Shown: positions 4 to 19,848 of the stretch, one piece after another
Position numbering within the stretch: position 1 is the stretch's first letter
How the letters are laid out: each line of letters starts with the position of its first letter
Assembly: GCA_963682135.1 (NCBI GenBank)
Contig: OY821645.1
Location: 800,001-864,000 of the forward strand
DNA: 64,000 bases
Direction: 5' to 3'
DNA from: Methanothrix sp.
GTDB lineage: Archaea; Halobacteriota; Methanosarcinia; Methanotrichales; Methanotrichaceae
Translations under genes and position numbers: made by a program
Notes under the pieces: model-generated
Told to the model about the DNA's origin: nothing
Seen by the model: the letters and a program-made list of their open reading frames with translations, nothing else
Databases searched by the model: none

Positions 4-354
4 TCATTCCTTCTCCAGAAGAGCCTCAGAATAGCGCTTGAGCCAGCTCGCTGATTCTATTGCCTCTCGGGTGAGCCTTTGATATTTCATTAGGTCCGCG
101 CTTCTGCTAGTCTTCCCGATATCTTCTGTTTCGCTCATCGTCTTGGTTAGATGAGATATGTAGGCCTCACCTGTTGCTCCCTCCTTAGCCTGCACAAAAG
201 CGATGGCCTGTGCTAGGCCGCAGTTATGCACTAATGCAGGAAATTTTTTTGCAAGCTGGCTATAATTCTCATCTCCCGCTGATCGGGAATGAACGCAATC
301 GTAAGCAATCTGCGCCCGTCTCTGCTGTCTGGTCAAGCGAACATTTTCAGCCAT
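4..354 (-). CDS. cmr5: Type III-B CRISPR small subunit Cmr5 (Cas11)
   Basis: About 116 aa from ATG at 354 (MAENVRLTRQQ...); 'KKFPALVHNCGLAQAIAF' and 'WLKRYSEA' are typical of Cmr5; follows cmr4. Its TGA overlaps an ATG at 7-5, probably the start of the next gene (cmr6 expected) beyond the window edge. Confidence 0.88.
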   Translation of the reverse strand: MAENVRLTRQQRRAQIAYDCVHSRSAGDENYSQLAKKFPALVHNCGLAQAIAFVQAKEGATGEAYISHLTKTMSETEDIGKTSRSADLMKYQRLTREAIESASWLKRYSEALLEKE

Positions 355-358
355 GTTC

Positions 359-1276
359 TCAGCCTCTCGTGAACTGGCATCTAACTCTGCCCTTGCCCAC
401 TGTCGCCTTTCCTCCGATCTGCAGCTCCAGCGCTGAGCCGCTACAAAATACATCGAGCAACTTCTCAACCAGTTTTTTCTGATCACCGCCATTGCAGCCA
501 TATACTCTATCGCACCAGACTATTCCAGCCAAGATGGTCTCGACTGGCAGAGCCTCCTCATACCACAGTGCGCCTTGGGTGACAATCTTCTTTTCGTCCT
601 CGATCCTGATATGGGCTGAAACCTCAGTTCCAGTCTCCGAGAGGAAATTGAAGCTATTATCTGAAACGATAGCAAAACGCTCCTGGAAGATGCTCTGCCA
701 TCTGGTATCACCGGAAAAGATTTCTTTCGCAAGCAGCTCAGCCCATTTCTGAGTTAAAGAATTATCCGCTCTGGCCGTAAAGTCAAGATCTTCAAAGAAT
801 ACCTTGCCATCTGCAGCCAATTTGGTATCTTTCATGTGAAGAGCCTCAGTATCGCTAGCAACAGGAGCTTCGGGTACGTCATTGTATCCAGAATCAACGA
901 GATCTCTCCTTAGCCTCTCTAGAACCAGGCGACTTGTAACATAAGCAAATGTGCCGTAGAGACTGCGAATGGGAAGGCAGACTATTCTTGCATCGGTAAA
1001 TACAAGGCTGCCTGAGTTCGCGCTGCCATTATCATCGTCGGGCTTGCCAAAGGCGGCATTGATGAGCTTATCAAAAGCTTTTTTCTCTTCTTCTGGTTTT
1101 TCATTCTTCTTTTGATCGAAATAGTCCCTTATCACGCCCTTAGTTGCAGATCCTGGAACCAGAGGCCATCCTGTTACCTTTTCCCTGATAATAGGAAGAT
1201 CTATAAATCCCACACCTCGACCCATGCCAACATGCAGAGGCGTTATTGCCTCTAGCCAGAAAATTTTAGTTGTCAA
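359..1276 (-). CDS. cmr4: Type III-B RAMP Cmr4 (Cas7, target RNA cleavage subunit)
   Basis: 'TPLHVGMGRGVGFIDLPIIREKVTGWPLVPGSATKG', 'LWYEEALP', C-terminal G-rich loop 'QIGGKATVGKG'; likely TTG start at 1276 after AGGAG. Confidence 0.95.
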   Translation of the reverse strand: MTTKIFWLEAITPLHVGMGRGVGFIDLPIIREKVTGWPLVPGSATKGVIRDYFDQKKNEKPEEEKKAFDKLINAAFGKPDDDNGSANSGSLVFTDARIVCLPIRSLYGTFAYVTSRLVLERLRRDLVDSGYNDVPEAPVASDTEALHMKDTKLAADGKVFFEDLDFTARADNSLTQKWAELLAKEIFSGDTRWQSIFQERFAIVSDNSFNFLSETGTEVSAHIRIEDEKKIVTQGALWYEEALPVETILAGIVWCDRVYGCNGGDQKKLVEKLLDVFCSGSALELQIGGKATVGKGRVRCQFTRG

Positions 1277-1309
1277 ATATAGCAACTCCTTTCTTCTCTC
1301 CATTTTTGT

Positions 1310-2500
1310 TCAAACATTATGATAATCCCACAATCCCCAAACGGCAAGTCCGAAGCCATCTCGCCGGTCTTGATTATCGTCACAAACTGATCTCAGCCAG
1401 AGGCTTTTAACCAGCTCTTCTGCATCTCCTGACAAGACCTCAAAGAAATAAACTGAGCCTGCAGGAACAAGCCTTCTAATTGCCTTCGGTCCGCGGCTGC
1501 CTTTCTCGAGGCTCCAGCCAGAGATCGGCTTCCAGCGATCGGTGCAGGCGGAGACAAGCTTTAGCTTCAAATCCTTAGGCCAAAAATCAGGCAATTTCCC
1601 TTCCTGCCAACCATCCAGCCATCCTGGCCTCCAGTCACCGGAGAAGATCGCAGGAGTTGCCAATATCATGCGAACTTTTTTCTTACCGGACAGTGCTTTT
1701 GCCACTTCATCAGGGCAGCTCCAGCCTCTATGAGAATTATCCAATTTCCACTGAGCTAATCGGCGTTCGCCGCCTATAGTATGAAATGTTTCGACCATCC
1801 TTTTTGGATATCCAACATCTTTTTCAAATTCTGCTCGTGCAGCCAGTTGAATACCATCTTTTTGATTTTTTATTGATAGATCGAGCCCTATCGTCTCGAA
1901 GAGCATTCTTTCTTTGGACGCACCTCGACTGGGATCTATCCAGATGTGGGTCCGTTGGTCTTTCTGTGGCAAGCTGCAAAAACCATCTCCGTCTTTGACA
2001 TTATCCGGCTCTGGTGGGGCATTAAAAGACTCACCTTTGGAATTTATGAGCCATCTAGTTATCATTTCCATAGACCAAAAGCCTGGGATTCTTGCAGGTT
2101 TGAAGTCCTTTTGCATGCTATCAGGAAGCATTGCAGGAAGAAGGCCTTCAGGCAAATCACATCCTTCTCCATCCTTCAGGTTTGCCGGACGAATTGCATA
2201 GGCTTGACGCTTGCATTTTTCATCCTTTACTAAGATATCCTTTGGTGACGGAATAAAAATCTGCCCTTTTATTAATGGCAGAGGCCCTGAGACCTGAATA
2301 GTCTTTAGCTCTTTAACCCTATTCTCATCGAATGCACCACCATTGATCTTTCCTAGCATTGTTCGAATAGATCCGGAGAGGACTGAGGGATATGGCCAGT
2401 CAAGGGATCTCATCCGAATTCCCTGCCCGACCCCGAATGGTCGCCCATCTCTGGCAATGACAGGATCATGAGGAGTTATGGATAAAAAAACAACATTCAT
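1310..2500 (-). CDS. cmr3: Type III-B RAMP Cmr3 (Cas5 family)
   Basis: 'DPVIARDGRPF', 'IGGERR', 'LATPAIF', 'VPAGSVYF', 'DGFGL' motifs; operon position. Confidence 0.93.
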   Translation of the reverse strand: MNVVFLSITPHDPVIARDGRPFGVGQGIRMRSLDWPYPSVLSGSIRTMLGKINGGAFDENRVKELKTIQVSGPLPLIKGQIFIPSPKDILVKDEKCKRQAYAIRPANLKDGEGCDLPEGLLPAMLPDSMQKDFKPARIPGFWSMEMITRWLINSKGESFNAPPEPDNVKDGDGFCSLPQKDQRTHIWIDPSRGASKERMLFETIGLDLSIKNQKDGIQLAARAEFEKDVGYPKRMVETFHTIGGERRLAQWKLDNSHRGWSCPDEVAKALSGKKKVRMILATPAIFSGDWRPGWLDGWQEGKLPDFWPKDLKLKLVSACTDRWKPISGWSLEKGSRGPKAIRRLVPAGSVYFFEVLSGDAEELVKSLWLRSVCDDNQDRRDGFGLAVWGLWDYHNV

Positions 2501-4338
2501 GCAGATTCCTCCTTCTTGATTTGATCACTGATCTGTCTTTTTACCTCTGCTATGCTTCTTGCGAGAACCAGTTCCTCTGCTCGGCGAACAAGATCGTCAT
2601 GGGATGTTACGTCTTTCATTAATTTGTCGATATCTTCTTTGTCGATCTCATTCGCTCCATGGCCTGATCTTTTTTGCCTAAGCAGTCGTTCTACATCTTT
2701 TGGGATCAGGTTCTGGGATACCAAAGCCCAATCTCTGTAATCATCTGCAAGAAGACGCAAGTCGTAAGCTGCTTTATCAGGGAACTTGTCCAACTGATAC
2801 ATCTCGACCCATTCTCCCATCCTTTCGTCCAGCCCGTTCTGGCCTGTTGGTCTCCATCGTTCTCTGATCTTAATCGGATCCCCGCCGCTTCTTGTGTGAA
2901 GATTTACAGATAGGCCATTTCTGTCGGGATATTTGGCTGATTTCTCGGCAGCCCTTCCATATTCAAGAAGATCCTCCAGAGGTTCCATCGAATGACCAAT
3001 GGCGACTCCAACTGACAAAGTTGGTATTTCGCCTCCTAAATCCTTACTAGAATCCTTAAGCAGGTTCTCAAAAGCATCGTGGAGATCTCTTGCAGCTCCA
3101 AGACAATGGTCCACAGGAATAAAAGCTAATACATCATCGCCGCCAGAGTATACCATGCAACCCCGATGGTCATCCTCAACAATCCACCGAGCTTTGATGG
3201 CAAATTTTGCCAGTTGGCCCGAGAACTCTTTGTGCTTCTCTTTTGATTTTATATTGGAAAGGGCCTTTCCCATTTGATCCCCATCGGCGACTAGCATTGC
3301 AAGATATGGACCAGGCTCGCCTAATCTCTTCCAAAGCTCGATCGTCTTCTTTTGAATCAGATCGAGCGTCTTTAAATCGCCTTTGAAAAGACTATCCTCA
3401 TCCGAATCAATTAGAGCATTTTTTAAGACCTCCTTTACTCTGGAAAGACGTGATGGATAGAATATTTGTCCATCGAATGGAAAGTCCTGGTATACCCTTT
3501 TTCCAGTGCCGCTAGAGAAGCTATTAGTTCCTTCGCACAGTATTTTTATTTCGTTAATGATTCGATTGGCGTCCTCATTTTGATCTCCAGCTATCCCTCT
3601 AAGCCATGGATCAAGAGCTACGCGGATTACTGAAGGAAATGCTATTCTTTGGCCACCGAGCCTCTTAGTCAATCCAACAGCACAGAGCTGCTCCCCATCA
3701 TTCAAACGCATCTGGAGAGAGAGTTCTTTTGGAATCGAACGATCTTTTTTGAGAATGCTCTCCCTTGCACCATCAAGCGATGATTTTGGAATGCCCGCCA
3801 GACCTTTTGCGGGTCTGAAATCACGAATGGACTTCCTGCCTGCCAAAAGGCGCATGACTCTTGATCGAGTATCTTGATAGTCATCAGTTAAAGGAGTCCA
3901 GGCAGCATAGAATTCTATGACGTCATCAATCTGATTATCCCAGATCTCTGGATGGATTGCCGCCCCTGCTTTATCCCTTGCCTCTTCGGCATAATGCATC
4001 CATTCCTCTTGAGCAGCAGTCTTTGCCTTTAAATTGAGTTCAGAAGGTTTTAGTTTCATGCCATCAGGCAGCTCTGCCAGAACTACGTTAGCTACATTAA
4101 AGGCATAAATCCTTTTATCAAGTGGCAATTTATAGGAGGATTCAAGGTCAGGATCTCCGCATACCAGCGCAGGAAATATTAGATTTCCTCCAGCTTCAGC
4201 CACCGTTCTGGCAGCTGCTTTGCTTATTTCTGAAAGAAGATGCGATCCGAACCAAAGATCCCTTGTCCTTCTTGCTGCCGAAATGAAGTCCTGAACAGGT
4301 CCGATTGATAGAACGTAAAGATACGAAGTCAAGATCAC
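2497..4338 (-). CDS. cas10: Cas10/Cmr2 large subunit, Palm GGDD intact, no N-terminal HD domain
   Basis: Begins directly with 'SIGPVQDFISAARRTRDLWFGSHLLS'; 'ADGDQMG' and 'YSGGDDVLAF' palm motifs; 613 aa. Confidence 0.95.
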   Translation of the reverse strand: MILTSYLYVLSIGPVQDFISAARRTRDLWFGSHLLSEISKAAARTVAEAGGNLIFPALVCGDPDLESSYKLPLDKRIYAFNVANVVLAELPDGMKLKPSELNLKAKTAAQEEWMHYAEEARDKAGAAIHPEIWDNQIDDVIEFYAAWTPLTDDYQDTRSRVMRLLAGRKSIRDFRPAKGLAGIPKSSLDGARESILKKDRSIPKELSLQMRLNDGEQLCAVGLTKRLGGQRIAFPSVIRVALDPWLRGIAGDQNEDANRIINEIKILCEGTNSFSSGTGKRVYQDFPFDGQIFYPSRLSRVKEVLKNALIDSDEDSLFKGDLKTLDLIQKKTIELWKRLGEPGPYLAMLVADGDQMGKALSNIKSKEKHKEFSGQLAKFAIKARWIVEDDHRGCMVYSGGDDVLAFIPVDHCLGAARDLHDAFENLLKDSSKDLGGEIPTLSVGVAIGHSMEPLEDLLEYGRAAEKSAKYPDRNGLSVNLHTRSGGDPIKIRERWRPTGQNGLDERMGEWVEMYQLDKFPDKAAYDLRLLADDYRDWALVSQNLIPKDVERLLRQKRSGHGANEIDKEDIDKLMKDVTSHDDLVRRAEELVLARSIAEVKRQISDQIKKEESA

Positions 4339-5627
4339 ACCTCCCGGAATTTATTCTCTTTAGCAAAGGCGAGGAATCCTTCAATTGCTGAGCCCGATGG
4401 AGAACGTGCGGGCTGACCGGGCCTTGGGCTTCCCAGAGGCGATTGCGGGTAAGCGCTAAGCATCGGATCTCGTATTTTCTTGGACCTGGGGCTTCCAGAT
4501 GCCTTTTTCAGGACGACTTCATCCGGAGAATGCGCCCTTAAGCAGAGAATCATCTGCTGCACCTCTCCGTTTTGACAGACAATAGGCCTTAAAATAATGG
4601 GGCTTGCCATTCTCGTCATCTCCTGGCCATTTACTATCGGATAGAGTTCGGTATCTTTAGGATCATTATGGTCCTTGAAATGGAAGACTATGGGCAGACC
4701 AAGCTCAGCTCTGGGAAATGCATCGTTTGGAATTCCCGGCATTCTGGAATGCTTCGGTTCCCGTTGAGATGTCTCTTTCCTTATCGTTTCTGGCTCGGGC
4801 CATCTTGACCGCCCAGGACGGTTAGGAGCCGTTCCGGGATTTCTGCCAGTATTCTGACCCTGCCTGAATGTCTGCATAAGGCTCACTACGTCATTCCACG
4901 CTTGCATTGCGCTGTTGCTGCTCTTGACAAGCAATGCATCGGGAAGTATTGGCCATTGCCTTGTCTGAGGCAGAACGACGCCGAAGTTTTGAAGACAATC
5001 TTTATACCAGGAGCCGATGCGTGATGCATCTGGAGGAGAAAGTTCATGGCAATAAAGTGCCCCGCAGCCTCTTCTAGCGCGAGCGCCTGCTCCTCCAAAG
5101 TTGGTCCAGGCCCAGACGGCTGCATCCACATCTGCGGAGAGGTTTGCAGGATAAATTAATTTCAACTCAAAGGAGACCTTTGAGGTGCATTCTGCAATGG
5201 CAGTGCCTTCTTTTTTATTTCCCTGGAAAGGAAAGAGCGCGTATCCTGGATGGTTTTCCTTGAATTTGGCGAAATTCTTTCCTTCAGGGATGTGCGCACA
5301 TGGATAGGTTATCCCTTGCGATTTTATTGTGACCTCAACGATCACCTGGCTGGGGTTATCGGTTTTGCCCCAGATTTCACCTTCAGACTGGCGAAGCTCG
5401 GCGACAGAAATGCATTTTGCAGCGCCCCGTGTCATTCTCCAAAAAGACCGTAGGTTTCCTCTGATGCTTGATGGGCGAATGAGTGTCACAAGATCGTTTT
5501 CGCTTGATTCGACACCTCCTCCAAAAATTGGTGTTATCACATCGATGCTATAAACCCTTCGAATCTTGTTCGGCTGGGAATCTATATTTAAAGGTTTTCC
5601 AAAGCATTTTGGAATGCTACGATTCAT
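4335..5627 (-). CDS. cmr1: Type III-B RAMP Cmr1
   Basis: 'VITPIFGGG', 'IRPSSIRGNLRSFWR', 'FGGAGARARRGCG', 'RMASPIIL'; ATG at 5627 preceded by GGAGTG. Confidence 0.93.
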   Translation of the reverse strand: MNRSIPKCFGKPLNIDSQPNKIRRVYSIDVITPIFGGGVESSENDLVTLIRPSSIRGNLRSFWRMTRGAAKCISVAELRQSEGEIWGKTDNPSQVIVEVTIKSQGITYPCAHIPEGKNFAKFKENHPGYALFPFQGNKKEGTAIAECTSKVSFELKLIYPANLSADVDAAVWAWTNFGGAGARARRGCGALYCHELSPPDASRIGSWYKDCLQNFGVVLPQTRQWPILPDALLVKSSNSAMQAWNDVVSLMQTFRQGQNTGRNPGTAPNRPGRSRWPEPETIRKETSQREPKHSRMPGIPNDAFPRAELGLPIVFHFKDHNDPKDTELYPIVNGQEMTRMASPIILRPIVCQNGEVQQMILCLRAHSPDEVVLKKASGSPRSKKIRDPMLSAYPQSPLGSPRPGQPARSPSGSAIEGFLAFAKENKFREV

Positions 5628-5766: not shown

Positions 5767-5802
5767 AAAAAATGGTGCATTTTTTCTCATTCTAATGCAC
5801 CA
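5767..5802 (-). terminator. Hairpin plus T6 terminator of the small peptide gene
   Basis: Perfect 9-bp inverted repeat TGGTGCATT (5773-5781) / AATGCACCA (5794-5802), followed on the minus strand by TTTTTT (5772-5767). Confidence 0.7.
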
Positions 5803-5959
5803 CTATGGAAACATGTACGGATATATCAATAGGCTTTGCAAGATTGGCCAAAAAAATAACGTTAAGCATAAACGCTAAAAACCCATTCAAGTATTTAGCG
5901 ATGGCCGATCGAGTCTCAAATTCGTTATGTATTCTATTGTTTTGTTTTTTCCTTTTCAT
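5792..5959 (-). CDS. Unannotated 55-aa membrane peptide, candidate CRISPR-repressed toxin (MKRKKQNNRIHNEFETRSAIAKYLNGFLAFMLNVIFLANLAKPIDISVHVSIVVH)
   Basis: Hand-translated, below the ORF-track cutoff. SD AGGTGAT (5969-5963) is complementary to the 16S 3' end in this window; has its own TATA box and terminator; basic N-terminus plus a hydrophobic stretch of about 19 aa. Confidence 0.7.
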   Translation of the reverse strand: MKRKKQNNRIHNEFETRSAIAKYLNGFLAFMLNVIFLANLAKPIDISVHVSIVVH

Positions 5960-6020
5960 GCTATCACCTTTAGGGCAGCTTTTAATTAGGCCCTATAATT
6001 GATTATTATCGAGTTCCTAG

Positions 6021-6036
6021 TATATAACAATTTTGC
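6021..6036 (-). promoter_or_regulatory. BRE/TATA promoter for the 55-aa peptide gene
   Basis: Minus strand reads GCAAAATTGTTATATA; predicted TSS near 5998, about 40 nt before the ATG. Confidence 0.6.
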
Positions 6037-6081
6037 ATAACTGTAGTGATCAAGCCAAATTAATATATGCATGCCTTTAAG

Positions 6082-6161
6082 AAAAAAATTGGACGAATTT
6101 TAGACTCGATCGCCCATCATAACGGTTTCAATGGGGCCGCGAATCTATTTTATCGCGGAAT
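6082..6161 (-). CRISPR. Solitary CRISPR repeat + 36-nt spacer + T7 tract (crRNA-like regulatory RNA)
   Basis: 37-nt repeat ATTCCGCGATAAAATAGATTCGCGGCCCCATTGAAAC (6161-6125) with CCGCGA/TCGCGG stem and canonical ATTGAAAC handle; spacer 6124-6089; TTTTTTT at 6088-6082; no second repeat found. Confidence 0.8.
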
Positions 6162-6183
6162 GAGTTTGTATTATTTTCAATCC

Positions 6184-6199
6184 TATATCAGTCTTTCGT
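6184..6199 (-). promoter_or_regulatory. Putative BRE/TATA promoter for the repeat-spacer RNA
   Basis: Minus strand reads ACGAAAGACTGATATA; the TATA-like element lies about 25 nt upstream of the first repeat base (6161). Confidence 0.5.
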
Positions 6200-6243
6200 C
6201 CACGACTTGACTATGCCCTCATAAGTCTTAAATTGGGCTTTCG

Positions 6244-6363
6244 GCTATCTCGCCGCCCGCTCACGCCCCCGCCTGCCCGTGCCCGCCCGCGTGCGCTTGC
6301 GCGTAGCCGGGAAGGGCGCGCGTGTGGCCCAGGGCGCGTGGAGCGTGCTCTTGCCGCCAATTC
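6244..6363. repeat. GC-rich dispersed element, copy 1
   Basis: Starts GCTATCT and ends TTGCCGCCAATTC; similar termini at 44428-44583 and a similar start (inverted) at 23922. Confidence 0.4.
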
Positions 6364-6688
6364 CCGCCCAATATCACTCTCTTCGCACCTCACGAATAGT
6401 AGTATAGATTAGATCCAAATACCGCTACTGTCCTGCGCCGTCAATCCCGCCCCTCCGGCCCGCCTGCGCCTGAGACGCGAGGCCCCTGGACAGCAAAGGC
6501 CTTGCAGGATACCCGGCTCTGGAGGTGGCCTGGCAAAGATCGATGTGCCCGCATCCCTGCAGCGACATCAGACTGACCGCGGCATGACTGGCAATCGTGG
6601 GCCATAGCCGCTTCCAAAGATAACTCAGGCGTTTCTCTACCACAACAAGCCATATATTTGCCAATAGATAAGACTTTTTATTGATATT

Positions 6689-8700: not shown

Positions 8701-8844
8701 AGCCGCAAGCCGCAAAATCAAACTGCGCGCGGCCCTCCATCCAGAGAGGTGGTGGAATGCTTCGGGCTGCGCGCCCGGTTATCCGGATTTAAATATTATC
8801 GAACAATTGCGCCGTGCATTGCAAACAGATTAATGAGGTATTCA

Positions 8845-10458
8845 ATGAAGACATTATGCATAATTTTGGCAGCATTGATATGCTTGCCTATATTGGCTTT
8901 TGCCGCTGCTGATAGCAAGGTTACTGGATCAGATAATAGTTCGCTTGATTCTATCTTAGACCAATCTACCATAGATTCTTTAGCCCGAGAAAGTGAAGTC
9001 AGCAACTTCTTTCAAGGAATAAGGAATAACCCGGAAGAACTCAGGGCCTTCTTTTTATCCATGCCTAAGGGAGGAGATATCCACAATCACCTGACAGGAG
9101 CGGTTTACGCCGAGGACCTCATCGACGCAGCATCCTCGGAGAGACTGTGCATCTATTCAAACAACTACACGGTCACCAACTGCACAGGATCGCAAAATAC
9201 GATACCATTGAGCCAGGCTTATGGAAACGAACGGTTCTACAATAGCATAGTAGATACCTGGTCAATGAAAAACTCAGAGTTATTGAACGTCAGCGGCCAT
9301 GACCAGTTCTTCTCCACGTTCGGGCGTTTTGGCGGTGCTACAAAAAATACGAGCCTCCTGGTGGCAGAGTTGCGTTCAAGAGCAGCTATCGATAACATAG
9401 AGTACCTGGAACTCATGACTGGCGTGAACACAAGCAGTAAGGCATCTAGCTTGGGGAATTGGAGTGAAAACCTCAGCCACTACTATGATGATCTCATTAA
9501 GGGAGGTCTGAGGGAGCTGGCCAAGGAAGCTTCCATAAATCTGAGAGAAATCGATGCCAAATCCATAAAGATTCTTGATGCCGGCGACCCAGGCAGGAAT
9601 GTTACAGTCAAATACCTGTGTACCGTTTCCAGGATCAAGCCGAAAAAAGAGGTCTTCGCTCAGCTTGCCCTCGCCTTCGAGGTGGCAAATATGTCTCCTC
9701 TAGCAGTGGGCATCAATATTCTGAGCGCTGAGGACAACAGAACCGCCAGGGAAGACTACTCATTGCATATGAAAATGATCGACTTCCTGCACGGAAAATA
9801 TCCCAATGTAAAGATTGCTCTGCACGCAGGGGAGCTGGAACTGGGACTGGTTCCACCCGAGGACCTCAGGTTCCATATCCAGGAGGCCGTTGAGGTGGGA
9901 CACGCTTCGAGGATAGGCCATGGAGTGGATATCATGAGGGAAACCAATTCCCAGAAGACCTTATCTGAGATGAGTAAGGATAAGGTAGCGGTGGAGATCA
10001 TGCCGGTGAGCAACAAGGAGATCCTGGGGGTCTCCGGAGAAGATCACCCGTTTCCAATCTACCTGAGCCGTGGGGTACCCATCGTCCTGGCCAGCGATGA
10101 CCCTGGAGTTTTGAGGACCGATCTGACTGAGCAATTCGTGATCATCGCCAGCGACTACCCGCAGGTGAGCTATTCGGATATCAAGACTTTTGCAAGAAAT
10201 AGCCTGGAGTACAGCTTCTTGCGTGGCGAAGGAATCTGGGAGGCGGCAGGGAATTACTCGCAGATGAGGAAGGAGTGTGCAGAATGCCGTGCCAGCACTG
10301 AATGCAAAGAGTGCAGGGCATTTTTGGATAAGAACGATAAGGCTAGAGCCGAATGGAGGCTTGAGGGAGATCTGGCTCTCTTTGAGAGTGGAGTCTATAA
10401 TTGGACAGCACTTAGCGGAAATGGGAATCAAAGGGGCTTCTCCATCCATGAGACCTAG
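8845..10458 (+). CDS. Secreted adenosine/AMP deaminase family protein
   Basis: Signal peptide MKTLCIILAALICLPILAFA; metal-binding motifs HNHLTG, HAGE, RIGHG, SDDP. Confidence 0.85.
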   Translation: MKTLCIILAALICLPILAFAAADSKVTGSDNSSLDSILDQSTIDSLARESEVSNFFQGIRNNPEELRAFFLSMPKGGDIHNHLTGAVYAEDLIDAASSERLCIYSNNYTVTNCTGSQNTIPLSQAYGNERFYNSIVDTWSMKNSELLNVSGHDQFFSTFGRFGGATKNTSLLVAELRSRAAIDNIEYLELMTGVNTSSKASSLGNWSENLSHYYDDLIKGGLRELAKEASINLREIDAKSIKILDAGDPGRNVTVKYLCTVSRIKPKKEVFAQLALAFEVANMSPLAVGINILSAEDNRTAREDYSLHMKMIDFLHGKYPNVKIALHAGELELGLVPPEDLRFHIQEAVEVGHASRIGHGVDIMRETNSQKTLSEMSKDKVAVEIMPVSNKEILGVSGEDHPFPIYLSRGVPIVLASDDPGVLRTDLTEQFVIIASDYPQVSYSDIKTFARNSLEYSFLRGEGIWEAAGNYSQMRKECAECRASTECKECRAFLDKNDKARAEWRLEGDLALFESGVYNWTALSGNGNQRGFSIHET

Positions 10459-17744: not shown

Positions 17745-19848
17745 AAGAGCGTACGCCATTGAAAAGACTATAAATGCGTACAGCATGGCTCTCCAAAATG
17801 AGCAAGACCTAATAGAAAAAGCCCGTATCCAGGAAAAAATCGCAGACAATTATTATGAGCTTTCCCTTGTCAAGATTGAAGATCGAAGATCCTGTCTACT
17901 AGAATCCATAGAGGCCTATCAGGAGGCTCTCGAGATCAGAACCCCGGATAGTTTCCCGAGAGATTATGCCAGAATACAAAACAATTTTGGGGCTATATAT
18001 CATACTCTGGCCCAGGTCGAGGACAAGGCCAAGAATTGCCATGAGGCTATCAAGGCCTACCAGGAGGCCCTAAAGATCCGCACTCTAGATGATTTCCCAT
18101 TGGATTATGCCAGGACGCAAAACAATCTCGGTAATGCATACGGCACTCTGGCCCAGGTCGAGGACAAGGCCAAGAATTGCAATGAGGCTATCAAGGCCTG
18201 CCAAGAGGCTCTAAAGATCCGCACTCTCGATGATTTCCCATTGGATTATGCCAGGACGCAAAGCAATCTCGGTAATGCATACGGCACTCTGGCCCAGGTC
18301 GAGGACAAGGCCAAAAACTGCCAAAAGGCTATCAAGGCCTACCAGGAGGCTCTAAAGATCCGCACTCTCGATGATTTCCCATTGGATTATGCCAGGACGC
18401 AAAGCAATCTCGGTAATGCATATCATACTCTGGCCCAGGTCGAGGACAAAGCCAAAAACTGCCAAAAGGCTATAGAGGCCTACCAGGAGGCTCTAAAGAT
18501 TCGCACTCTCGACGATTTCCCATTGGATTATGCCAGGACGCAAGACAATCTCGGTAATGCATACGGCACTCTGGCCCAGGTCGAGGACAAAGCCAAGAAT
18601 TGCCAAGAGGCTATCAAGGCCTGCCAGGAGGCTCTAAAGATCCGCATTCTCGATGATTTCCCATTGGATTATGCCAGGACGCAAAGCAATCTCGGTAATG
18701 CATACGGCACTCTGGCCCAGGTCGAGGACAAAGCCAAGAATTGCCAAGAGGCTATCAAGGCCTGCCAGGAGGCTCTAAAGATCCGCACTCTCGATGATTT
18801 CCCATTGGATTATGCCAGGACGCAAAGCAATCTCGGTAATGCATATCATACTCTGGCCCAGGTCGAGGACAAAGCTAAAAACTGCCAAAAGGCGATAGAG
18901 GCCTACCAGAAGGCTCTAAAGATTCGCACTCTCGACGATTTCCCATTGGATTATGCCAGGACGCAAGACAATCTCGGTAATGCATACGGCACTCTGGCCC
19001 AGGTCGAGGACAAAGCCAAAAACTCCCAAAAGGCTATCAAGGCCTGCCAGGAGGCTCTAAAGATCCGCACTCTCGACGATTTCCCATTGGATTATGCCAG
19101 GACGCAAAGCAATCTCGGCAATGTATACGTCACTCTGGCCCAGGTCGAGGACAAAGCCAAAAACTCCCAAAAGGCTATCAAGGCCTACCAGGAGGCTCTA
19201 AAGATCCGCACTCTCGATGATTTCCCATTGGATTATGCCAGGACGCAAAGCAATCTCGGTAATGCATACGTCACTCTGGCCCAGATCGAGGACAAAGCCA
19301 AAAACTGCCAAAAGGCTATCAAGGCCTACCAGGAGGCTCTAAAGATCCGCACTCTCGATGATTTCCCATTGGATTATGCCAGGACGCAAAGCAATCTCGG
19401 CAACGCATATCATACTCTGGCCCAGGTCGAGGACAAAGCCAAAAACTGCCAAAAGGCTATCAAGGCCTACCAGGAGGCTCTAAAGATCCGCACTCTTGAC
19501 GATTTCCCATTGGATTATGCCAGGACGCAAGACCATCTCGGTAATGCATACGGAACACTAGCCGAGGTCGAGGACAAGGCCAAGAATTGTCAAGAAGCTA
19601 TCAAGGCCTATCAGGAAGCACTCAAGATTCGCACTCTCGACGATTTCCCCATAGATTATGCAGAGACACAGACCATTCTTGGATCTGTGTACAAAACTCT
19701 GGCTGAAGCTGAAAACAAGATGGATAATTTCAGGAGAGCCAAGCAGGCATATGTGCAAGCGATTGAGACCTTGACTAAGCTGGAATTGCCAGAGATTAAA
19801 AAGTCGGTTGAAGATAAGCTATCCGAATTGGATTTTATCTGCCGCTAG
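17734..19848 (+). CDS. TPR-like protein with near-identical 47-aa tandem repeats
   Basis: 11 near-identical plus 2 degenerate copies of LDDFPLDYARTQxNLGNAYxTLAQVEDKAKNCxxAIKAYQEALKIRT. Confidence 0.9.
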   Translation: MTIKRAYAIEKTINAYSMALQNEQDLIEKARIQEKIADNYYELSLVKIEDRRSCLLESIEAYQEALEIRTPDSFPRDYARIQNNFGAIYHTLAQVEDKAKNCHEAIKAYQEALKIRTLDDFPLDYARTQNNLGNAYGTLAQVEDKAKNCNEAIKACQEALKIRTLDDFPLDYARTQSNLGNAYGTLAQVEDKAKNCQKAIKAYQEALKIRTLDDFPLDYARTQSNLGNAYHTLAQVEDKAKNCQKAIEAYQEALKIRTLDDFPLDYARTQDNLGNAYGTLAQVEDKAKNCQEAIKACQEALKIRILDDFPLDYARTQSNLGNAYGTLAQVEDKAKNCQEAIKACQEALKIRTLDDFPLDYARTQSNLGNAYHTLAQVEDKAKNCQKAIEAYQKALKIRTLDDFPLDYARTQDNLGNAYGTLAQVEDKAKNSQKAIKACQEALKIRTLDDFPLDYARTQSNLGNVYVTLAQVEDKAKNSQKAIKAYQEALKIRTLDDFPLDYARTQSNLGNAYVTLAQIEDKAKNCQKAIKAYQEALKIRTLDDFPLDYARTQSNLGNAYHTLAQVEDKAKNCQKAIKAYQEALKIRTLDDFPLDYARTQDHLGNAYGTLAEVEDKAKNCQEAIKAYQEALKIRTLDDFPIDYAETQTILGSVYKTLAEAENKMDNFRRAKQAYVQAIETLTKLELPEIKKSVEDKLSELDFICR
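17944..19700 (+). repeat. 141-bp coding tandem repeat
   Basis: 'gatttcccattggattatgcc' recurs at 18091, 18232 and onward with a period of 141. Confidence 0.95.

Follow-up and report, generated by a model that had tools for sequence, protein, structure and literature searches.

Organization of the locus

The window analysed in this study, a stretch of 64,000 nucleotides from the genome of a Methanothrix species, carries two small units on its minus strand that directly precede a cmr operon. The first has the elements of a gene for a crRNA-like RNA, and the second, on the strand of cmr1 and about 140 nt before it, encodes a short peptide. The features of the locus are listed below, with positions referring to the window unless a genome position is given.

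6184-6190, minus strand: TATA-like box TGATATA, about 25 nt 5' of the repeat, putative promoter element
6125-6161, minus strand: solitary degenerate CRISPR repeat of 37 nt ending in ATTGAAAC, with a hairpin and a 12-nt 3' tail
6132-6125, minus strand: candidate crRNA 5' tag, the last 8 nt of the repeat
6089-6124, minus strand: spacer (guide) of 36 nt, of which nt 7-32 (6118-6093) pair with the peptide mRNA
6082-6088, minus strand: T7 tract, likely end of the crRNA-like transcript and putative terminator
6021-6036, minus strand: BRE/TATA-like element of the peptide gene, putative promoter
5963-5969, minus strand: Shine-Dalgarno sequence AGGTGAT, 3 nt 5' of the ATG
5792-5959, minus strand: ORF of 55 aa (family A), putative membrane toxin
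5900-5925, minus strand: target site in the mRNA, codons 12-20, pairing with spacer nt 32-7
5767-5801, minus strand: terminator-like hairpin (5801-5774, overlapping the stop codon) and T6 (5772-5767)
4335-5627, minus strand: cmr1 (TIGR01894), likely start ATG at 5627, longest ORF from 5651
2497-4338, minus strand: cas10/cmr2, 613 aa, GGDD cyclase motif (NCBIfam/Pfam)
1310-2500, minus strand: cmr3 (NCBIfam/Pfam)
359-1303, minus strand: cmr4, the Cas7 backbone and RNase subunit (NCBIfam/Pfam)
4-501, minus strand: cmr5 (NCBIfam/Pfam)
genome 798853-800007, minus strand: cmr6, just beyond the window
genome 797603-798856, minus strand: Card1-type nuclease with CARF and nuclease domains, overlapping the end of cmr6

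Inspection of the sequence recovered every element that the original prediction had assigned to the crRNA-like unit and to the peptide unit (BRE/TATA-like element, Shine-Dalgarno sequence, ORF of 55 aa, hairpin and T6) on the minus strand and at the positions it had named.

Within the crRNA-like unit, the TATA-like motif CTGATATAGGATTGA has a single exact occurrence in the whole genome, and near-identical boxes precede the repeat in modules of the families A, B and C described below. The repeat itself (6161-6125) is present in one copy, with no second one found at up to 3 mismatches in the window or at up to 8 substitutions in the genome, and, unlike in a canonical repeat-spacer array, no further repeat follows the spacer. 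Its predicted hairpin (-9.1 kcal/mol) occupies the same position as in five orthologous repeats, and a hairpin followed by a 12-nt 3' tail is predicted in 6/6 repeats folded. This hairpin is retained despite changes on both arms, as is the 8-nt tag, whose last base varies between loci, reading ATTGAAAC here and ending in A or T elsewhere (A in G041, T in family C). T-runs are also found 3' of the spacer in G009 and G104. The original prediction had called for a comparison of the repeat with the CRISPR arrays of the genome, and the two are not identical: compared to the repeats of two type I-G-associated arrays, only 25-26 of 37 positions agree, and what the module repeat has in common with them is the 3' tag ATTGAAAC and a hairpin at the corresponding place.

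The peptide gene is a single copy in the 3.04-Mb genome. Its BRE/TATA-like element is kept as ATGCAAAATT.TTATATACT in G104 and almost so in G009 (alignment A2), the position of the Shine-Dalgarno sequence holds GGTGAT or GGTGGT in G009, G104 and G085, and an equivalent hairpin with a T-run recurs in G009, G104, G085, G087 and family C. The encoded peptide combines a basic N-terminus with a strongly hydrophobic segment around residues 24-41 and a conserved C-terminal I.I.V.V.I..H pattern. In family A, the ORF measures 55 aa in G000, G009 and G104 and 58 aa in G085, with a maximal mean Kyte-Doolittle hydropathy over 15 residues of 2.1-2.5. Families A and B together span 24-58 aa and values of 1.7-2.5, ORF length and Shine-Dalgarno sequence being conserved, and the peptides of all families contain a strongly hydrophobic segment, a feature that is also found in type I toxins. 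None of the peptide families has a match in Pfam or NCBIfam, and none matched a known toxin. A protein homology search retrieved, besides the peptide itself, only two metagenomic proteins closely related to it, each an over-extended gene call, and no relatives were found among 50,697 phage records (tblastn) or in a scan of IMG/VR contigs with alignment A4.

Complementarity between guide and peptide mRNA

Both the guide and the peptide mRNA are read off the minus strand, and nt 7-32 of the spacer are complementary to codons 12-20 of the ORF at 24/26 positions, with mismatches solely opposite spacer nt 12 and 24 and with nt 1-6 and nt 33-36 remaining without pairing to this mRNA. A repeat search independently located the same site as an inverted repeat of 26 nt (5900-5925 and 6093-6118) with 92% complementarity, in agreement with the antisense match that had been proposed. 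When the downstream 588 nt were dinucleotide-shuffled 2000 times, the best score for the 26-nt core was 19 (mean 13.8), compared to the 24 observed, and in the 3.04-Mb genome this ORF is the only site complementary to the core at up to 6 mismatches besides the spacer's own opposite strand. Since the shuffles reach at most 19 and the ORF is the sole genomic site, a chance origin of the match is excluded.

Conservation of the module in three families

Comparable complementarity was sought, irrespective of any tag, in the 83 Cmr1 locus records that extend 500 nt or more upstream. All 15 records that score at least 21/26 carry the 5' arm 5-7 nt after ATTGAAA[C/A/T]. In total, a tag-adjacent arm is present in 20 records, which correspond to 16 loci and 12 distinct spacer-target pairs; records lacking such an arm score no higher than 20, and control regions within cmr genes 15-20. 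The 16 loci, all from Methanotrichaceae, share a solitary repeat and a small hydrophobic ORF directly upstream of cmr1, at a distance between repeat and cmr1 of about 470-760 nt (nearly all about 470-600 nt), which is the arrangement that the original prediction had suggested to look for in related cmr loci.

Behind the conserved promoter and repeat, the same slot is occupied by three unrelated families of spacer and ORF. The ORF encodes 55-58 aa in family A, 24-31 aa in family B (by the start judged likeliest) and about 91-101 aa in family C, and the guide is directed to codons 12-20 in family A, to the Shine-Dalgarno sequence and start codon in family B and to about codons 11-22 in family C. 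In all 12 distinct pairs, and thus in all three families, the guide is antisense to the ORF strand, and the target is always within the transcribed region and at the promoter in none of the families.

Among 105 genomes of the order, 19 have a Cmr1 match and six of these carry the module. It is missing in the remaining 13, including one with a 74%-identical Cmr1, and Cmr therefore does not need the module. The distribution is not congruent with Cmr1 identity, as family A adjoins Cmr1 proteins of 77-79% and 46% identity to that of the window and family B those of 64-65%, and such patchiness would be expected of a selfish module. When the 551-nt module was compared to the 105 genomes by blastn, genuine matches were confined to G000, G009 and G104; a further 19 genomes were listed with short matches at E values of 0.004 or worse, and the more distant modules were found only via Cmr1. 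One such short match, in L015, sits in a coding region and was rejected, and L141, with 17/26 behind a different repeat, was left uncounted. A single TGA within the Cmr1 match of G087 was not taken as a broken cmr1, since the L062 copy is open over 428 aligned residues.

Covariation of spacer and target

The target site is more strongly preserved than its surroundings, with 25/26 identical positions between the window and G009 compared to 22/34 and 60/108 in the remaining parts of the ORF. Guide and target co-vary. In family A (five sequences), 7/26 pairs are changed on both sides, and the covariation score of 0.242 (shuffle mean 0.105) is reached in 0/500 shuffles, with at most 2 pairs changed on both sides in slid controls. 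In family B (four sequences), 7/26 pairs are again changed on both sides, with a score of 0.353 compared to 0.196 and 0/500 shuffles reaching it. Covariation was counted for these two families, family C comprising three distinct sequences only. Antisense pairing of guide and mRNA is shown by this covariation, and the module passes the test of conservation and covariation in related loci by which the original prediction could have failed.

These data bear on the view that the unit is a functionless remnant of a decayed array with an accidentally self-targeting spacer. A systematic survey of mini-arrays found, in the part of the study accessible to us, no targets for those of type III and judged them to be probably degraded repeats and debris (Shmakov et al., 2023, PMC10120712). 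For the module described here we regard this origin as scarcely conceivable: a match of 24/26 faces a maximum of 19 in 2000 shuffles, synteny extends over 16 loci with compensatory changes, and the covariation contradicts it.

The pairing evidence reflects selection on guide and target, not toxicity, and would equally be obtained if Cmr-guided regulation served a purpose other than addiction, either by tuning a small membrane protein with a physiological or defence role or by autoregulating the cmr operon through cleavage of read-through transcripts, in a CreR-like manner at the level of RNA. Read-through would be possible across the short distance to cmr1 on the same strand, and autoregulation of the CreR type is known in types I and V, as stated in the available text of 10.1101/2023.03.10.532045. 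We nevertheless consider such a role improbable. The peptide unit closes with a hairpin and a T-run, family C loci have a separate AT-rich TATA-like motif before cmr1, and an autoregulator could act on the cmr leader itself without an ORF that bears a conserved Shine-Dalgarno sequence. Moreover, three unrelated hydrophobic ORFs in one slot are better suited to a generic membrane poison, and presence of the module is patchy among close Cmr loci.

Pairing pattern of the guide

Across the 12 distinct pairs, 26/48 cells are unpaired at nt 12, 18, 24 and 30 compared to 12/252 elsewhere in nt 8-32, counts that overstate independence because members within a family are related. Positions that are unpaired in the majority of members are nt 12, 18 and 24 in family A, nt 12 and 24 in family B and nt 12, 17 and 18 in family C, with a combined p value of 2e-4 when families are treated as independent units. 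Unpaired positions outside this period comprise nt 17 in family C, nt 25 in G085 and 2/4 members of family B and nt 9-11 in some modules, with an additional mismatch at nt 16 in L070 and L071. Codon periodicity does not explain the gaps, since they fall on first rather than wobble positions of the codons in family A and since the site of family B is mostly untranslated.

The pairing is also strongly polar. At nt 1-5, Watson-Crick pairs are found in 10/60 cells, which is at chance level, whereas nt 26-32 are paired in 84/84 cells and nt 33-38 in 22/72. Position 30, though part of the every-sixth series, is paired in 12/12 modules, which would be explained by a short complex with a crRNA of about 40 nt, whose last 7-8 nt would constitute an exposed seed. 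Neither the gaps at every sixth position nor the combination of free nt 1-5 and paired nt 26-32 had been noticed in the original prediction.

In type III effectors, the thumbs of Cas7 subunits exclude every sixth position from pairing, and a 5' segment that activates Cas10 is distinguished from a 3' seed (Steens et al., 2021, available text of PMC8376896). The same text reports that mismatches in the activating segment abolish synthesis of cyclic oligoadenylate (cOA) in vitro while leaving cleavage intact, and an activating region from +1 to +7 finds support also for type III-A in the accessible part of PMC9704408. The rules on the activating region and the 3' seed derive from Thermus and Staphylococcus complexes and not from the Cmr of the window. 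Every-sixth gaps in conjunction with a free 5' and a paired 3' part point to a type III effector as the partner of the guide rather than to naked antisense RNA or type I Cascade, and, by analogy with the complexes studied in PMC8376896 (as far as its available text goes), the mismatch at nt 1-5 would keep Cas10 inactive. We have also considered anti-tag protection as the main safeguard and rejected it, as complementarity between the 8-nt tag and the 3' flank of the target is partial and variable; protection from autoimmunity would therefore rest on the 5' mismatches alone.

Both alternatives named above deserve closer consideration. In the classical layout of a type I toxin-antitoxin pair, a small hydrophobic peptide is accompanied by an antisense RNA encoded in trans. 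The peptide, the complementarity over about 26 nt and the site of family B, which spans the Shine-Dalgarno sequence and the start codon, would fit this layout, with an antisense RNA that descends from a CRISPR repeat and acts independently of Cas proteins. A naked duplex, however, offers no reason why three independent families should tolerate mismatches specifically at nt 12, 18 and 24 or why pairing should set in 7-8 nt past the tag, and the repeat has kept its hairpin through changes on both arms together with its 8-nt tag, while the module adjoins cmr1 in 16/16 loci. We thus view this explanation as very unlikely.

Equally remote appears a classical CreTA system, in which type I-G Cascade (Csb proteins) would be guided to the DNA of the peptide gene and repress its transcription. 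Binding of type I effectors starts at a PAM-proximal seed comprising spacer nt 1-5 and 7-8, and this is the basis of the partial 5' match of CreA. In the present module, pairing spares this seed and involves the 3' end instead, the site resides in the transcribed region and not at a promoter, and each family has a guide antisense to the mRNA. A gene for the type I-G protein Csb2 is located just upstream of the module in G009, an upstream ORF in G087 carries the same C-terminal motif as csb2, and the tag is common to I-G-associated arrays, all of which would speak for type I-G; yet G000 and G041 lack an adjacent csb2, whereas cmr1 is adjacent always. Exclusion of every sixth nucleotide is likewise a property of type I backbones according to the available text of PMC8376896, and the known CreTA systems, as far as the accessible sources describe them, all act by repression at the level of DNA.

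Effector and candidate processing genes

The likely start of cmr1 is in line with its orthologues, which begin at MNRSIP. Cas10 opens directly with its Cmr2_N domain, which leaves no room for an N-terminal HD domain, and the IDLPI motif of Cmr4, whose aspartate we take to be the catalytic residue, aligns with that of solved Cmr4 chains. With Cmr1-6, a GGDD-containing Cas10 and Card1, the operon is predicted to encode a cyclase-competent type III-B system with cOA signalling. Searches of the genome with the profiles PF01881 and PF10040 gave no stand-alone Cas6, so that processing of the repeat would depend on the distant Csb2, whose genes in the type I-G loci are located 0.7 and 2.1 Mb from the module. 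An adenosine deaminase encoded at 8749-10458 was not counted as part of the system, as CRISPR-associated deaminase structures matched weakly and over the deaminase domain only.

Proposed mechanism

Based on these observations, we consider it probable that the module is a CreTA-like, CRISPR-guarding toxin-antitoxin module of the type III-B (Cmr) system that acts at the level of RNA. In the proposed mechanism, the mini-CRISPR with its own promoter, one degenerate repeat, one spacer and T-run would be transcribed and cut 8 nt from the end of the repeat by a type I-G Csb2, whose gene is located elsewhere in the genome, through its Cas6-like domain. Cmr would be loaded with the resulting crRNA of about 40 nt, consisting of the 8-nt tag and about 32 nt of guide, whose nt 7/8-32 would pair with the mRNA of the adjacent, separately transcribed small membrane peptide. 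Cmr4 would then cleave this mRNA, rather than the complex merely binding it, and in family B a complex covering the Shine-Dalgarno sequence and the start codon may additionally block initiation of translation. Because nt 1-5, the activating region, are unpaired, Cas10 would stay off, no cyclic oligoadenylate would be made and Card1 would remain inactive, resulting in constant silencing that is not autoimmune. Such silent targeting is presumably needed at this locus, since Cas10 has a GGDD motif and Card1 overlaps the end of cmr6. If Cmr were lost by deletion or mutation, or inhibited by an anti-CRISPR, the peptide would be made and would harm the membrane, and cells losing Cmr would be counter-selected or infected cells aborted.

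Extended to all loci, we lean towards a broader description of the module as a type III-B guard cassette of the Methanotrichaceae, in which spacer-toxin pairs of three or more toxin families can be exchanged behind a conserved promoter and a degenerate repeat, and in which a guide mismatched in the activating region turns Cmr into a constant, signalling-silent silencer of the mRNA of a membrane toxin.

Type III is the most common CRISPR type in archaea. If our interpretation is correct, type III would gain its first CRISPR-regulated toxin-antitoxin system, which would also be the first of this kind with RNA as its target. The module would provide a natural case where RNA cleavage by a type III effector is uncoupled from cOA signalling, and it would imply that these effectors have a built-in mode for silencing host genes. 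Type III systems would in this way protect themselves post-transcriptionally, by addiction or by sensing of anti-CRISPRs, and a permanent self-target would be survivable by virtue of a mismatched Cas10-activating region. To our knowledge, the rule governing such mismatches has so far been known only from in vitro work and the design of diagnostics. The same arrangement would offer a natural design for type III knock-down guides that are silent in signalling and for kill-switches tied to an effector.

Relation to known systems

CreTA has been described for type I-B in Haloarcula and for type I-F in Acinetobacter and Pseudomonas (available text of PMC9458426 and PMC10097628). As described there, it resembles the module of the window in several respects: a crRNA-like RNA originates from one or two degenerate, ectopic repeats near effector genes, its incomplete complementarity to an adjacent toxin gene leads to silencing instead of destructive interference, and loss of the effector releases the toxin, which for the window module is our proposal. 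CreA brings Cascade to the DNA of the toxin promoter by way of its 5', PAM-proximal seed, so that transcription is blocked, and the toxin CreT is itself a small RNA. In the module described here, by contrast, the 3' part of the guide pairs with mRNA, its 5' part is free, the effector would be Cmr, and the cargo is a putative membrane peptide with a conserved Shine-Dalgarno sequence and ORF. Measured against the features that define CreTA and CrePA, we thus find a degenerate ectopic repeat near effector genes and partial complementarity, and in place of a seed-mediated match to promoter DNA we find sites in the ORF or at the Shine-Dalgarno sequence and start codon. As to a toxic cargo that would be released with the loss or inhibition of the effector, the hydrophobic peptides, the three interchangeable cargo families and the patchy distribution are indirect hints. 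In CrePA, a protein toxin repressed by CRISPR confers population-level immunity against anti-CRISPRs (accessible parts of 10.1101/2024.01.05.574328 and PMC12737573). A protein toxin held down by a CRISPR effector and freed upon its inhibition is what we propose here as well; in CrePA, repression is transcriptional and the toxin phage-derived, whereas the site in the window is in RNA and no phage relative was found in our searches.

With type I toxin-antitoxin pairs, the module shares a short hydrophobic peptide and the pairing of its mRNA with a second RNA, which in family B takes place at the Shine-Dalgarno sequence and start codon, and it differs from them in the CRISPR repeat hairpin and tag of that second RNA and in a pairing pattern indicative of a protein-bound guide. 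Compared to a canonical type III-B crRNA as characterized in the available text of PMC8376896, the 8-nt tag, a guide of about 32 nt, 5-nt segments, continuous pairing at the 3' end and a sense transcript as target all recur, but the guide derives from one repeat in a unit that has a promoter and terminator of its own instead of from an array, the target is a chromosomal neighbour instead of foreign DNA, and the activating segment is mismatched in all 12 distinct pairs. Like CreR and other crRNA-like autoregulators of cas genes (types I-B, I-E and V-A, and tracr-L of type II), the module comprises a degenerate mini-CRISPR at the edge of a cas operon that would redirect the effector to a chromosomal site; their targets are cas promoter DNA, unlike the mRNA of a separate small ORF found here.

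CreTA, CrePA and crRNA-like regulators known to us so far employ DNA-binding effectors of types I, II and V. No type III counterpart of the module was found in the openly accessible literature searched, and the view of the original prediction that such a module had not been described is consistent with this search and with the available text of PMC10120712. The evolutionary record of the loci, with covariation in blocks of 5 nt, free nt 12, 18 and 24 and obligatory nt 26-32, would reveal the targeting rules of the Cmr of an uncultivated archaeon without experiment, and it suggests a recipe by which further modules may be searched for, starting from the tag and then looking on the same strand for a small ORF close by to which the complementarity is 3'-biased.

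A solitary repeat with a self-matching spacer upstream of cmr1

Directly upstream of cmr1, the window contains two small transcription units on its minus strand (6190-5767), the first carrying a solitary CRISPR-type repeat with its spacer and the second a small ORF encoding a hydrophobic peptide. Each element that the original prediction had ascribed to these units was located.

Elements of the two units, identified in the sequence of the window
6190-6184, minus: TATA-like TGATATA of unit 1
6161-6125, minus: 37-nt CRISPR-type repeat of unit 1, with the 3' end ATTGAAAC
6124-6089, minus: 36-nt spacer of unit 1, followed by a T7 tract
6036-6021, minus: BRE/TATA-like stretch of unit 2
5969-5963, minus: Shine-Dalgarno sequence (SD) AGGTGAT of unit 2
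5959-5792, minus: 55-aa ORF of unit 2
5801-5774, minus: hairpin of unit 2 overlapping the stop codon, followed by a T6 tract

Since the same strand is transcribed in both units, spacer nt 7-32 (the core) run antisense to the ORF mRNA at codons 12-20 (the target). The claimed match was recovered in a repeat search of the window as a 26-nt inverted repeat (5900-5925/6093-6118) with 92% complementarity, equivalent to 24 of 26 positions. It does not reflect a chance inverted duplication, the case that would have spoken against the proposal, as the sequence downstream, dinucleotide-shuffled 2000 times, reaches at most 19/26 and the peptide ORF is the sole core-complementary site at up to 6 mismatches in the 3.04-Mb genome. 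The solitary repeat recurs neither in the window nor, at up to 8 substitutions, in the genome. Just upstream of this mini-CRISPR lies a segment (6211-6400) that is very rich in GC and contains short direct repeats. It has a similar counterpart upstream of cmr1 in the locus records L035 and L042 and may be a remnant of the csb2 end or a conserved non-coding element.

Three families of modules in related cmr loci

By blastn, the module has matches, whole or split, in G009 and G104, two further members of the genus. Among 105 genomes from the order, 19 contain a Cmr1 match, and searches with Cmr1 also recovered nine loci in species-representative genomes (eight from Methanothrix/Methanotrichaceae MAGs and one, at 40% identity, from an Anaerolineales MAG) and 77 loci in metagenomes. 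In 83 records, 500 nt or more were available upstream. For these we scored, irrespective of any repeat tag, the strongest complementarity between segments of the same strand within the 1 kb preceding cmr1. In 20 of these records, representing 16 loci, the 5' arm starts 5-7 nt past ATTGAAA(C/A/T), and all 15 records scoring 21 or higher have such a tag-adjacent arm, whereas records without the tag score at most 20 and control regions within cmr genes 15-20.

The modules group into three families. Family A (the window, G009 with L067, L068, L070 and L071, G104 and G085) contains ORFs of 55-58 aa targeted at codons 12-20. In family B (G087, L075, G041 and L125), with ORFs of 24-31 aa from the start judged likeliest, the target spans the SD and start codon, and in family C (L077, identical to L078, L080 and L082) it is located at about codons 11-22 of ORFs of about 91-101 aa. 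Every peptide of the three families contains a strongly hydrophobic segment. The cassette looks modular, because promoter motif and repeat are similar across families while spacers and ORFs are dissimilar. Among the 19 genomes that match Cmr1, 13 do not contain the module, and in several of these csb2 directly precedes cmr1. In one genome, G107, a run of N interrupts the gene upstream of cmr1 (L034, oriented, 1224-1323), and absence is judged from the approximately 180 readable bases between this run and cmr1.

Two further features were observed in families B and C. Within about 5-10 nt past the spacer and ahead of an A/T run, both carry a Shine-Dalgarno-like AAGG(A/C)GGT motif, which might serve as a processing signal or ribosome decoy, or represent a remnant. 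The ORFs of family C pass through a terminator-like hairpin and T-run and stop only 40-90 nt later, which leaves two readings: a genuine protein that does not span the full ORF, or transcripts that lack a stop codon.

Additional features of families B and C
L077:1150-1165; L080:1955-1972; L082:152-167; L037 (oriented) about 1065-1080: AAGG(A/C)GGT motif
L082:327-626; L080:2122-2427; L077:1505-1780: family C ORFs extending past the terminator-like hairpin

Spacer and target covary

Conservation and covariation in related cmr loci, which the original prediction had named as its own test, are both found, the former in 16 loci and the latter in families A and B, where in each case 7 of the 26 proposed pairs show changes in both partners among related sequences. 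In family A (five sequences), the covariation score of 0.242 compares to a shuffle mean of 0.105 and is reached by 0/500 shuffles, and at most two double-changed pairs remain if the partner is slid by 1-3 columns. In family B (four sequences), the score is 0.353 against 0.196 (0/500 shuffles). Between the window and G009, the target is identical at 25/26 positions compared to 22/34 and 60/108 in the rest of the ORF, and the spacer core at 23/26 compared to 71/177 in the interval between spacer and ORF.

The pairing pattern suggests the footprint of a Cmr complex

We analyzed the pairing state of each spacer position in 12 distinct spacer-target pairs, which include kin sequences within families. 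At nt 1-5, 10/60 cells (one position in one pair) are Watson-Crick paired, which is the chance level. Within nt 8-32, 26/48 cells are unpaired at nt 12, 18, 24 and 30 but only 12/252 elsewhere, with a majority unpaired at nt 12, 18 and 24 in family A, 12 and 24 in B and 12, 17 and 18 in C (combined p = 2e-4 for the every-sixth enrichment, with families as units). By contrast, nt 26-32 are paired in 84/84 cells, and pairing ends at nt 32-35, with 22/72 cells paired at nt 33-38. Codon periodicity was considered as a cause and rejected: in family A, the target nucleotides at every sixth position are the first of their codons, and the family B site is mostly untranslated.

The free 5' segment, every-sixth gaps and paired 3' end match rules described, in the excerpted text of a study from another organism, for the Thermus Cmr complex, where the Cas7 thumb keeps every sixth crRNA nucleotide from pairing, a 3'-end seed is required for binding and cleavage, and first-segment mismatches abolish cyclic oligoadenylate (cOA) synthesis while leaving RNA cleavage intact (PMC8376896). 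Excerpts on a type III-A complex likewise support a Cas10-activating region at +1 to +7 (PMC9704408). The pairing of nt 30 in 12/12 modules, despite its every-sixth position, and the end of pairing at nt 32 would fit a short complex in which the crRNA measures about 40 nt and exposes its final 7-8 nt as a seed.

A serious alternative effector is the type I-G Cascade: several relatives have its csb2 gene as the neighbour upstream, and type I backbones likewise skip every sixth base. We reject it because it is precisely the PAM-proximal seed segment that stays unpaired, the target sites lie within the transcribed region instead of promoters, each of the three families has its guide in antisense orientation to the mRNA, and cmr1 neighbours the module in 16/16 loci while csb2 is not adjacent in the window genome or G041. 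An antisense RNA acting independently of Cas proteins does not explain the pattern either, as it leaves the periodic freedom and the conserved tag and hairpin unaccounted for. We thus favour Cmr as effector.

The Cmr operon and its probable source of crRNAs

Downstream of the module, the window encodes cmr1, cas10/cmr2, cmr3, cmr4 and cmr5, followed just outside by cmr6 and a Card1-type gene. The start of latter overlaps the end of cmr6, and the operon thus carries its own predicted cOA-activated nuclease. Cas10 contains a GGDD motif and opens directly with a Cmr2_N domain, with no N-terminal HD domain, and alignment of Cmr4 to solved structures of this subunit extends to its IDLPI motif, whose aspartate we take to be the catalytic residue. 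This gene content identifies the locus as a predicted cOA-signalling type III-B system, for which a self-target matched along its full length would be dangerous. Further downstream follow an ORF with a DUF4258 domain and a short Csx3-like fragment.

Genes outside the window (coordinates of the window genome, G000)
797603-798856 (L143:7603-8856), minus: Card1-type protein, 417 aa, with CARF_Card1 and Card1 endonuclease domains
76870-77589 and 2947922-2948686: two type I-G csb2 genes, each beside a CRISPR array

CRISPR arrays elsewhere in this genome contain three repeat types, each ending in ATTGAAAC, two of which adjoin csb2, a Cas5-Cas6 fusion. A stand-alone Cas6 was not found with PF01881 or PF10040, and Cmr apparently depends on I-G processing of crRNAs. 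The expected correspondence between solitary and array repeats holds in part: the tag and the place of the hairpin are retained, whereas only 25-26 of 37 positions are shared with the repeats beside csb2.

A proposed RNA-level addiction module

From the observed anatomy, synteny, covariation, periodicity, polarity and gene content, we infer a mechanism in which Csb2 would cut the mini-CRISPR transcript and the product would be loaded into Cmr. The complex would bind the peptide mRNA starting from the guide 3' end, allowing Cmr4 to cut it, and in family B might additionally occlude the ribosome-binding site. Because the activating region is mismatched, Cas10 would stay off and Card1 untriggered. 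Upon loss or inhibition of Cmr, the putative toxic peptide, which resembles a type I toxin, would accumulate and damage the membrane.

The proposed logic is that of the CRISPR-repressed toxin modules CreTA and CrePA, but carried out on RNA. The literature found on CreTA, CrePA, the cas autoregulator CreR and crlRNAs describes, in the excerpted texts, DNA-level repression by types I, II or V throughout, and the CreTA/CreR-type papers checked either do not mention type III or refer to type III-B in another context. Combining terms for crRNA-like RNAs with Cmr or Csm complexes retrieved no paper among openly accessible main texts, within which the initial impression that no type III counterpart had been described holds. 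A type III-B module acting on RNA would thus be new. Mini-arrays lie near 10-14% of the type III loci surveyed by Shmakov et al. (2023), who, in excerpts, report 'no potential targets' for them and suggest that they are non-functional (PMC10120712).

Elsewhere in the window, a 569-aa protein (8749-10458, plus) with an adenosine-deaminase domain at residues 279-492, and an N-terminal half to which no domain is assigned, weakly resembles CRISPR-associated deaminase structures, in its deaminase part only, and 11.8 tandem copies of a 141-nt unit (18004-19661, 92% matching) probably encode a repeat protein unrelated to the module.
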